Shown one piece after another: positions 26,291 through 27,897 of a stretch of 64,000 nt of DNA (its first letter is position 1; every line of letters starts with the position of its first letter). The notes under the pieces are model-generated. The model was not told the DNA's origin. It did no database searches and worked only from the letters and a program-made list of their open reading frames with translations. The position numbers were made by a program, and so were the translations under genes. The DNA comes from Octopus vulgaris (taxonomy: Eukaryota): positions 74,710,001 to 74,774,000 of the forward strand of contig OX597816.1 of NCBI GenBank assembly GCA_951406725.2, read 5' to 3'.

Positions 26291-27897
26291 ATTTATATAT
26301 GAGGATAATATCGATATTTAAGTGTCGAAATTATCAAGTGGCCAGCATGAAAGAAATACCTTACAAAGGTAAAAAAATTTTTAACAATTAAAAATGAGGG
26401 TGTCTAAAAGACACTAACATGCCGAAATAGCAGTCGAAACACTGACTATAGTACCACGTTAAATGTTCATATCGCACCATGAGGTAAAGCGGAGGGACAA
26501 AACATACAAGCAAAAATTATTGAATAATTCAAGATCCAAGGATTTCTGGTTCTGCTTTAGATAAGCTTTACCGTCATCAATTGAATATATCAAGGGTACA
26601 TAAATACAGATATATATATGCACAGCAAACGATATACTTACATATACGAGCGTCGTACATACATACATATGCACGTATGGACACAGCCAGTTTGAATCGC
26701 CCGCCAAATCACCGCATAAGTACGATATGGTTAAAATAAGCACCGCAGTGAATATAATAACGAATTATATAAATTTATATATGAGGATAATATCGATATT
26801 TAAGTGTCGAAATTATCAAGTGGCCAGCATGAAAGAAATACCTTACAAAGGTAAAAAAATTTTTAACAATTAAAAATGAGGGTGTCTTTTAGACAAAAAT
26901 ATAAATGAAATTTAGACACCATCATTTTTAATTGTTAAAATTTTTTTTACCTTTGTTAGGTATTTCTTTCATGCTGGCCACTTGATAATTTCGACACTTA
27001 AATATCGATATTATCCTCATATATAAATTTATATAATTCGTTATTATATTCACTGCGGTGCTTATTTTAACCATATCGTACTTATGCGGTGATTTGGCGG
27101 GCGATTCAAACTGGCTGTGTCCATACGTGCATATGTATGTATGTACGACGCTCGTATATGTAAGTATATCGTTTGCTGTGCATATATATATCTGTATTTA
27201 TGTACCCTTGATATATTTAATTGATGACGGTAAAAGCTTATCTAAAGCAGAACCAGAAATCCTTGGATCTTGAATTATTCAATAATTTTTGCTTGTATGT
27301 TTTGTCCCTCCGCTTTACCTCATGGTGCGATATGAACATTTAACGTGGTACTATAGTCAGTGTTTCGACTGCTATTTCGGCATGTTGGTGTCTTTTAGAC
27401 ACCCTCATTTTTAATTGTTAAAAATTTTTTACCTTTGTAGGTATTTCTTTCATGCTGGCCACTTGATAATTTCGACACTTAAATATCGATATTATCCTCA
27501 TATATAAATTTATATAATTCGTTATTATATTCACTGCGGTGCTTATTTTAACCATATCGTACTTATGCGGTGATTTGGCGGGCGATACAAACTGGCTGTG
27601 TCCATACGTGCATATGTATGTATGTACGACGCTCGTATATGTAAGTATATCGTTTGCTGTGCATATATATATCTGTATTTATGTACCCTTGATATATTCA
27701 ATTGATGACGGTAAAGCTTATCTAAAGCAGAACCAGAAATCCTTGGATCTTGAATTATTCAATAATTTTTGCTTGTATGTTTTGTCCCTCCGCTTTACCT
27801 CATGGTGCGATATGAACATTTAACGTGGTACTATAGTCAGTGTTTCGACTGCTATTTCGGCATGTTGGTGTCTTTTAGACACCCTCATTTTTAATTA
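26291..27897. mobile_element. Retrozyme / Penelope pLTR-like element: ~482-bp monomer, ~1.25 copies followed by ~2.05 inverted copies
   Basis: gaggataatatcg at 26301 and 26783 (period 482); inversion at ~26887-26911; tttagacacc at 26911, 27394, 27874; copies nearly identical; one hammerhead per monomer; (TA)n on both flanks. Confidence 0.85.
27696..27755 (+). ncRNA. Type I hammerhead ribozyme variant (copies at 27215-27275 + and 26527-26586 -)
   Basis: Stem I attcaa/ttgaat; core TTGATGA; stem II cGGT-aaaGCTTatctaAAGCaga-ACCa; GAAA; stem III ATCC-tt-GGAT; cleavage triplet ATC (after 27749). Deviates by C3U and a C/A mismatch at the base of stem II. Confidence 0.7.

Follow-up and report, generated by a model that had tools for sequence, protein, structure and literature searches.

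A head-to-head hammerhead element within a (TA)n tract

The window analysed here is a stretch of 64,000 nt from the Octopus vulgaris genome (contig OX597816.1). At positions 26292–27896 it contains an element that consists of two head-to-head arms and a 15-nt filler, enclosed by (TA)n target tracts on the left (26187–26291) and on the right (27897–28024). The left arm (26292–26895, minus strand) holds 1.25 units, and its outer end is referred to as end B. This end carries a ~95-nt tail of the Penelope-like element (PLE) type that runs from end A to end B (26292–26385, minus strand) and terminates in ...CCTCATATATAAAT where (AT)n begins. The right arm (26911–27896, plus strand) holds 2.05 units. 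Its outer end is end A, where the hairpin GTGTCTTTTAGACAC and the end-A motif CCTCATTTTTAATT directly precede (AT)n (27868–27896, plus strand), and the end-B motif CCTCATATATAAATT lies internally in this arm (27496–27510, plus strand). Read directly from the sequence, the filler at the head-to-head junction (26896–26910) is AT-rich and adjoins a fold-back through a GTGTCT-TTT-AGACAC hairpin. Positions within the unit are given below as q, numbered along 27416–27896 of the window; the predicted cut falls after q334.

The initial annotation had described ~3.3 nearly identical copies of a non-coding 482-bp monomer inserted in (TA)n. This description holds: there are 3.3 units with a period of 480–483 and 97–99% identity, (TA)n flanks the element on both sides, and its interior has no ORF of at least 110 aa. 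A flank-derived, low-complexity frame of 120 aa overlaps the first 11 bases of the element. Hammerhead fold 1, of type I, lies in the left arm (26527–26586, minus strand) with a predicted cut after 26533. The right arm carries two hammerheads, and 25 arms with at least two were counted among the 79 loci sampled below. Fold 2 (27215–27275, plus strand; predicted cut after 27269) has a U·G wobble in stem I and an extra A in the internal loop of stem II, and fold 3 (27696–27755, plus strand) has its predicted cut after C27749. The predicted cut-to-cut monomer RNA (27270–27749, plus strand) is 480 nt long with 34% GC.

Two further stretches of the right arm were noted. A TATA-like/TCACT stretch that follows end B (27500–27535) resembles the pLTR promoter in the available part of PMC3846280. 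A splice-donor-like GTAAGTA (27641–27648) has been retained by most copies in every subfamily seen; no conserved splice acceptor to match it was seen in them, and we claim no intron.

A young family with older relatives

The element belongs to a dispersed family. Genome-wide, the young-type ribozyme motif has 219 exact matches and older relatives with a canonical core account for 858 motifs, against 0 matches for the reversed-pattern controls of both. In a search with the unit itself, the best 40 of 1717 candidates were scored; the top places were 98–100% identical and lay on many chromosomes. Copies differ from the majority sequence by 1.4% on average, and the earlier reading of the repeat as a young tandem family with a type I hammerhead, of the same kind as non-LTR retrozymes, is supported. 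Older subfamilies are 78–88% identical and have kept the unit, and the canonical-core matches among the first 100 of 858 all belong to the same lineage. One locus (L182:2054–2601) contains a shorter internal repeat, with q218–481 present twice at a period of 284.

The inversion, previously handled as incidental, is the usual form of the family, as 53 of 79 loci have two arms. An assembly artefact had been named as a possible refutation; instead, the identical layout recurs at dozens of loci, each with different flanks, and the head-to-tail unit junction is also present in contigs of three other sequencing runs. Family members occur in contigs of eight sequencing runs, seven of which are presumed RNA, and the unit sequence was found in runs labelled with five coded organisms and one metagenome. 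Four runs chosen by species label alone contained next to no unit words. Loose contig ends could be traced only to sister subfamilies.

Like retrozymes, the family has tandem hammerhead units that are non-coding, low in GC, short, and dispersed in many copies. The unit of 480 nt lies above one reported retrozyme range (170–400) and inside another (51–972 bp), and the former impression that the monomer is longer than most is not borne out. The element has no ORF with reverse transcriptase (RT) plus GIY-YIG, as an autonomous PLE would. We classify the family as a variant non-LTR retrozyme, or non-autonomous PLE.

The hammerhead fold and its core

All three motifs in the window contain the UUGAUGA...GAAA core and AUC site reported initially, with stem I starting at 26586 (minus strand), 27215 (plus strand) and 27696 (plus strand). 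The fold is made up of stem I (AUUCAA/UUGAAU), the core UUGAUGA followed by an unpaired C, stem II (GGU/ACC) with an inner GCUU/AAGC hairpin, an A, GAAA and stem III (AUCC-UU-GGAU). The initial statement that all stems pair goes too far, since stem III does not close in the monomer and stem II is weak. Stem III is palindromic with a 2-nt loop, and its pair probability in the monomer is at most 0.01; between two copies, the folding computation gives an intermolecular duplex. As a 2-nt loop cannot close within one monomer, stem III pairing needs a dimer. Stem II consists of 3 bp with a probability of about 0.16; one of its sides has an unpaired C, and a further unpaired base, an A, precedes GAAA. 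The hammerhead differs from the computed minimum-energy fold, and the predicted 480-nt monomer folds far better than shuffled sequences (z −7.1).

An Rfam search, suggested earlier as a check, returned no hammerhead in the window stretch at E ≤ 1 and none in four canonical-core relatives at E ≤ 0.5; the matches obtained were hairpin look-alikes only. The other proposed check, stem covariation, gave a positive result for stems I and II across subfamilies. We aligned 32 motifs (two from the window, one intermediate and 29 of 30 older loci, excluding L147, which has a deletion). At one position of stem I, the pair reads AU in 10, CG in 10 and UA in nine of them, a pair of the inner hairpin is AU in 23 and UA in nine, and stem II shifts between subfamilies from GGC/GCC to GGU/ACC. 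Paired cells make up 95.8% of the alignment, versus at most 43% when it is slid, although these counts are inflated by kinship among the 32 sequences. The core and stem III columns carry no evidential value, as they are fixed by the search pattern. Because stems I and II covary across subfamilies, the hammerhead fold is real in the family.

Ribozyme activity of the window copies, judged from their sequence, is doubtful. They have U3·G8 instead of the canonical C3-G8 and an unpaired A before GAAA, and these departures beside stem II and in the core predict low activity. Older subfamilies have the C3 core, yet the unpaired purine before GAAA is kept in all subfamilies. Core counts among the first 100 of 478 degenerate-pattern matches were 66 UUGA, 19 CCGA and 15 canonical CUGA, which points to two amplified subfamilies whose cores have changed differently at positions 3 and 4. 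In its available text, PMC3088659 reports U3-A8 covariation as active and notes an active U-U mismatch at 10.1-11.1, and it rejects matches with core changes or with mispairs adjoining the core. RNAalifold, applied to 13 long pieces, showed no covariation and found neither the rod nor the hammerhead; one named long-range helix has modest support, with double changes at 4 of 10 pairs (5 of 500 shuffles).

Two fixed ends and their pairing

The insertions were examined at 79 young loci, 39 from the genome searches and 40 fetched additionally, among which long copies are over-represented because loci were selected by best score or exact motif. The 3′ ends of the arms are fixed at two sites ~95 nt apart, A (q481) and B (about q95). 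Among the 53 two-armed loci, 45 combine A with B, none has A+A and seven have one other end; the single locus scored as B+B (L089) is a palindromic 16-nt self-match. Single arms end at A in 15 cases, at B in 10 and elsewhere in one. A and B ends adjoin (TA)4 or longer in 118 of 124 cases, against a background of 6.5%. Older subfamilies retain both ends.

Both end motifs shift jointly, from CCTTAT/CCTAAT in older copies (L099–L164) to CCTCAT in young ones and in the window. In sequence, the shift looks as if one recognition motif had co-evolved at two sites.

The inner (5′) ends of the arms are scattered, and they pile up neither at the cut nor at the TATA/TCACT stretch. About 2 of 132 arms have their 5′ end at the cut site, about the level of chance, and 115 of 124 arms cross it. 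More than half (68/132) exceed 481 nt, and the longest spans 3.5 units. An arm start at q335 in L200 and one at q332–334 in L173 lie at or beside the predicted cut, no more than chance expects.

Opposite arms of one locus share 6.5 variants per kb and differ at 8.7, compared with 2.5 shared and 23.0 differing variants per kb between loci. The q415 marker agrees between arms in 30 of 30 loci. Among locus-private variants, 11 are common to several copies of the locus and 130 are unshared. Some loci are mosaic: A222G is so in 5 of 10, and units differ within L015 and within L203. The read-through and the variants shared within loci suggest that the arms of a locus likely derive from a single circular or multimeric RNA that was primed twice.

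Penelope-like elements and the search for a partner

Fixed 3′ ends, variable 5′ truncation, an inverted copy, a tail at one end and an AT-rich or microsatellite target all characterise PLE insertion and are all found here, so that the A+B rule, the inverted arms and the (TA)n targets strengthen the previously proposed Penelope link. The part of PMC8557442 available gives as PLE hallmarks an inverted 5′-truncated copy, a single tailed end and insertion into (TA)n, and the same architecture, with a tail of 30–40 bp at one end, is described there and in PMC3846280. According to the accessible text of PMC11167929, two internal RT start sites follow the hammerhead and delimit the tail, cutting and extension take place on both strands of the target, and elements with a mutated hammerhead still insert in vitro.

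PLE ORFs were sought genome-wide through their GIY-YIG domain, and the genome contains many intact RT+GIY-YIG ORFs. A cysteine motif before the nuclease, the criterion in the available text of PMC8557442, assigns them as putative Neptune members. One intact Neptune family has many copies that are 98–100% identical and that end in (TA)n at either of two sites separated by 40 nt. Among 16 of its loci that were fetched, two are two-armed, both of them A+B, and its end motifs resemble those of the retrozyme unit. In a second Neptune family, the hammerhead lies 139 nt before end A, compared with 147 nt in the retrozyme unit. No extended homology between PLEs and the unit was found in 30 GIY-YIG loci, eight longer stretches and 16 Neptune loci. 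In the PLE families examined, which are part of those in the genome, nothing matched the unit above shuffles outside (TA)n, and short end motifs were alike.

Several features of these elements were recorded in passing. The pLTR hammerhead of the second Neptune family (L066:4300–4350, L063) has a U·U mismatch beside the core, a palindromic GUAC stem III and a core reading CCGAAGA or CUGAAGA. In the young Neptune family, a separate ORF of 359 aa lies upstream (L061:406–1482), and the 3′ part holds arrayed ATTGGTCA / TGATGACGTC repeats (L061:4250–4720), which we take to resemble CCAAT and CRE boxes; relaxed patterns found no hammerhead in it (L061). Other type I hammerhead-like motifs, with a palindromic stem III of CAUG, CCGG or CUCGAG, occur in unrelated repeat families (L049, L212, L034, L038).

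Recurrent A>G changes on the hammerhead strand

Counted once per locus, the young loci carry 109 A>G and 56 T>C changes although A is rarer, and the bias appears in both arm orientations (67:30 and 84:36). The excess comes from a small number of sites. Of 25 A>G sites, six recur on both main haplotypes, in at least two loci each, compared with none of 45 T>C sites (p 0.0014); for other substitutions, 2 of 228 sites recur on both haplotypes. A TpA-matched comparison gave recurrence at 8 of 53 A>G versus 0 of 52 T>C sites, and 74 versus 11 events (p 0.006). The hot spots q141, 175, 211, 214, 222, 254 and 382 (27556, 27590, 27626, 27629, 27637, 27669 and 27797, plus strand) are all A in the window units, and outgroups indicate A as ancestral at q141, 211, 214, 222 and 254 and mostly at 382. 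A naive binomial p of 2e-12 was discarded as inflated by shared ancestry. Leave-one-site-out parsimony gave 63 steps for 82 carriers versus 48 for 175, with three linked markers dominating, and this tree test has little force, since homoplasy also affects several sites with other changes.

The recurrent changes are probably ADAR edits that were fixed by reverse transcription. Depletion of a 5′ G is the ADAR signature, and hyper-editing is very high in octopus, in the available text of PMC5625713. A 5′ U is found at 19 of 26 A>G sites (p 0.003), and the hot spots are mostly predicted to pair with U. Site-specific misincorporation by a polymerase or RT, or gene conversion between copies, would produce recurrent changes with no ADAR involved. 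We regard such an origin as doubtful, since these neighbour and pairing preferences speak against it, as do a bias that follows the element strand in both orientations, mirrored TpA sites that show none, other markers that mostly stay on one haplotype background, and Neptune control copies without an excess (37 A>G versus 39 T>C). It draws on the older subfamily, where the excess is missing (41 versus 57, p 0.68), on unbiased numbers of distinct sites (26/118 A>G versus 47/187 T>C), on three hot spots within a TA/TG-rich stretch, and on two that fit ADAR poorly, q214 with its disfavoured 5′ G and q175, which is predicted to be unpaired.

One presumed RNA run, for which there is no matched DNA, differs by A>G at seven positions within or next to the hammerhead, all apparently from a single contig at depth 3. 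This cluster is absent from a deep comparison run, and the contigs of four further runs hold nothing comparable.

Relation to known retrozymes and Penelope-like elements

The class to which the octopus family belongs is already known; what is new here are the two fixed ends with their A+B rule and the A>G imprint. As in the metazoan non-LTR retrozymes of PMC7229834 and 10.64898/2026.07.22.740005, a class with a mollusc (mussel) example, the units are non-coding, low-GC and tandem with one type I hammerhead each, the predicted monomer is highly self-paired, and dependence on PLEs is proposed. Unlike those retrozymes as described there, most octopus copies have two head-to-head arms with strict A+B ends in (TA)n, a variant core and recurrent A>G changes, and their circular RNA is a prediction. 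The words ‘inverted’ and ‘microsatellite’ have no occurrences in the main text of PMC7229834, and the sampling described in the accessible part of 10.64898/2026.07.22.740005 includes no mollusc. In Xenopus, 24 of 57 retrozyme families match known elements, nearly all of them PLEs, and 8 of 9 dimers did not cleave, as far as the available account goes; for the octopus family, no homologous PLE was found.

Similarity to endonuclease-bearing (EN+) PLEs such as Neptune and Poseidon extends, in the portions available of PMC8557442, PMC3846280 and PMC11167929, to partial tandems, an inverted 5′-truncated copy, a tail at one end, AT-rich or (TA)n targets and a hammerhead upstream of two RT start sites. 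The octopus element differs in having no ORF, a tail of ~95 nt rather than 30–40, and a body that is repeat throughout. Compared with the PLE pLTR hammerheads in the available text of PMC4209133, the octopus motif likewise has a short palindromic helix III that needs a dimer and an extra nucleotide after A9, whereas it has an additional conserved purine before GAAA, U3 with G8 where the reported covariation is U3-A8, and a helix I of 6 bp, as in canonical motifs. Non-autonomous Chlamys PLEs, e.g., MRC1, are PLE derivatives with head-to-tail insertions, like the octopus family; in the accessible part of PMC8557442, however, the Chlamys clade has no canonical hammerheads and its non-autonomous members resemble the 3′ ends of their partners, and no such partner was found in octopus.

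A 2026 repeat annotation of Octopus vulgaris (PMC13282606) includes active Penelope families, and its available text has no mention of ribozymes. In the literature searched, apart from supplementary motif lists (these may name cephalopods), Repbase and Dfam, we did not find a description of the octopus family, of A+B pairing of retrozyme ends or of retrozyme copies in which edits had become fixed.

A proposed cycle and its alternatives

We propose that the family is a ~481-nt non-coding hammerhead repeat that is moved in trans by the RT/GIY-YIG endonuclease of a PLE, likely Neptune, and give this reading a probability of roughly 0.7. It builds on the architecture, the A+B rule, the (TA)n targets, the read-through, the shared variants, the hammerhead covariation and the A>G bias found in the data. 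The parts of the cycle that we infer are the transcription strand, the editing enzyme, the cleavage, the circle and the partner enzyme. An arm with at least two units would be transcribed on the hammerhead strand, and the RNA would fold into long helices, a few sites of which are likely A-to-I edited. Dimeric hammerheads may then cut the RNA into 480-nt monomers that become circles, for which the chances are about equal to those of an uncut multimer. The PLE protein would bind the A–B region of the retrozyme RNA and nick a (TA)n tract on both strands. One nick would prime cDNA at the internal site A, and the other would do so at site B, ~95 nt downstream. Both priming events would mostly occur on one RNA molecule. 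The two cDNAs would cross the ribozyme site, often exceed one unit, stop at scattered points and be joined head to head, with inosines fixed as G.

In its fullest form, an ADAR-edited circular RNA is twin-primed by a Neptune enzyme, the insertions are A+B pairs of rolling-circle cDNAs, and the edits become heritable. We put this forward tentatively, as a conjunction we would not expect to hold in every part. The circular monomer accounts for arms that exceed one unit, for the scatter of their 5′ ends and for the private variants they share. Mosaic loci and the 130 unshared private variants contradict a strict single circle, unless they arose after insertion.

A possible alternative keeps the same two-site PLE priming but takes an uncut linear multimer as template, with the UUGAUGA and CCGAUGA hammerheads of young copies as vestiges. 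It explains the mosaic units, such as neighbours in L203 that differ by A>G, and the tolerated core changes, as two subfamilies with changes at different core positions have been amplified; next to no 5′ ends lie at the cut, and insertion in vitro dispenses with hammerhead activity in the available text of PMC11167929. Yet arms of up to 3.5 units and a unit length conserved in subfamilies of 78–88% identity require a step that regenerates tandems, tandem units have private variants in common, the stems covary even into the young subfamily (GGC/GCC to GGU/ACC), and the L200 arm begins exactly at the cut. As template, we consider the circular monomer and the uncut multimer about even.

That the copies are mere 5′-truncated pLTR ends of some autonomous PLE is improbable. 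Their architecture does equal that of PLE ends; against this, 68 of 132 arms exceed the unit length by repeating the unit rather than by reaching an ORF, and tblastn with two Neptune proteins matched 5 of 126 locus records, in none of which the match was contiguous with the upstream side of the unit. The PLE fragments near units in these five records proved to be separate insertions. This explanation is largely refuted. A DNA-level repeat (a MITE with inverted ends, a satellite or an assembly artefact) with a chance hammerhead look-alike, which the inverted arms, the negative Rfam result and the deviation from the minimum-energy fold might suggest, is very improbable and is refuted by the stem covariation, in which a single stem I position takes three kinds of pair, and by the end architecture, with unequal fixed outer ends and variable inner truncations on many chromosomes, as well as by controls of 0 versus 858.

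Under the proposed movement in trans by a PLE enzyme, the family bears on two open questions, namely how the tandem and inverted insertions of PLEs and their tails are formed, and which enzyme moves animal retrozymes. With a 481-nt substrate that lacks an ORF and has near-invariant A+B ends, and with intact Neptune ORFs present in the same genome, both questions can be tested in vitro. The amplified subfamilies with changed cores offer a test of whether the ribozyme is required. Strand-specific recurrent A>G changes would be genomic evidence for an RNA intermediate and for editing that feeds back into DNA; in the available parts of earlier literature, editing was merely suggested as a source of retrozyme heterogeneity. 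If the edited, twin-primed circle is true, the family would be a natural record of two-strand priming by PLEs and of the mutation of a mobile RNA through editing.

Neighbouring features

Further along the window, LINE-type ORFs lie at 31921–34846 (plus strand), with a 657-aa RVT_1 frame downstream of an endonuclease (Exo_endo_phos_2). Closer to the element, a near-perfect 137-nt inverted repeat with ATCGCCATATTAATATGGCATTC (28349–28488) is MITE-like, and part of it recurs at 28028–28070, immediately to the right of the (TA)n tract.
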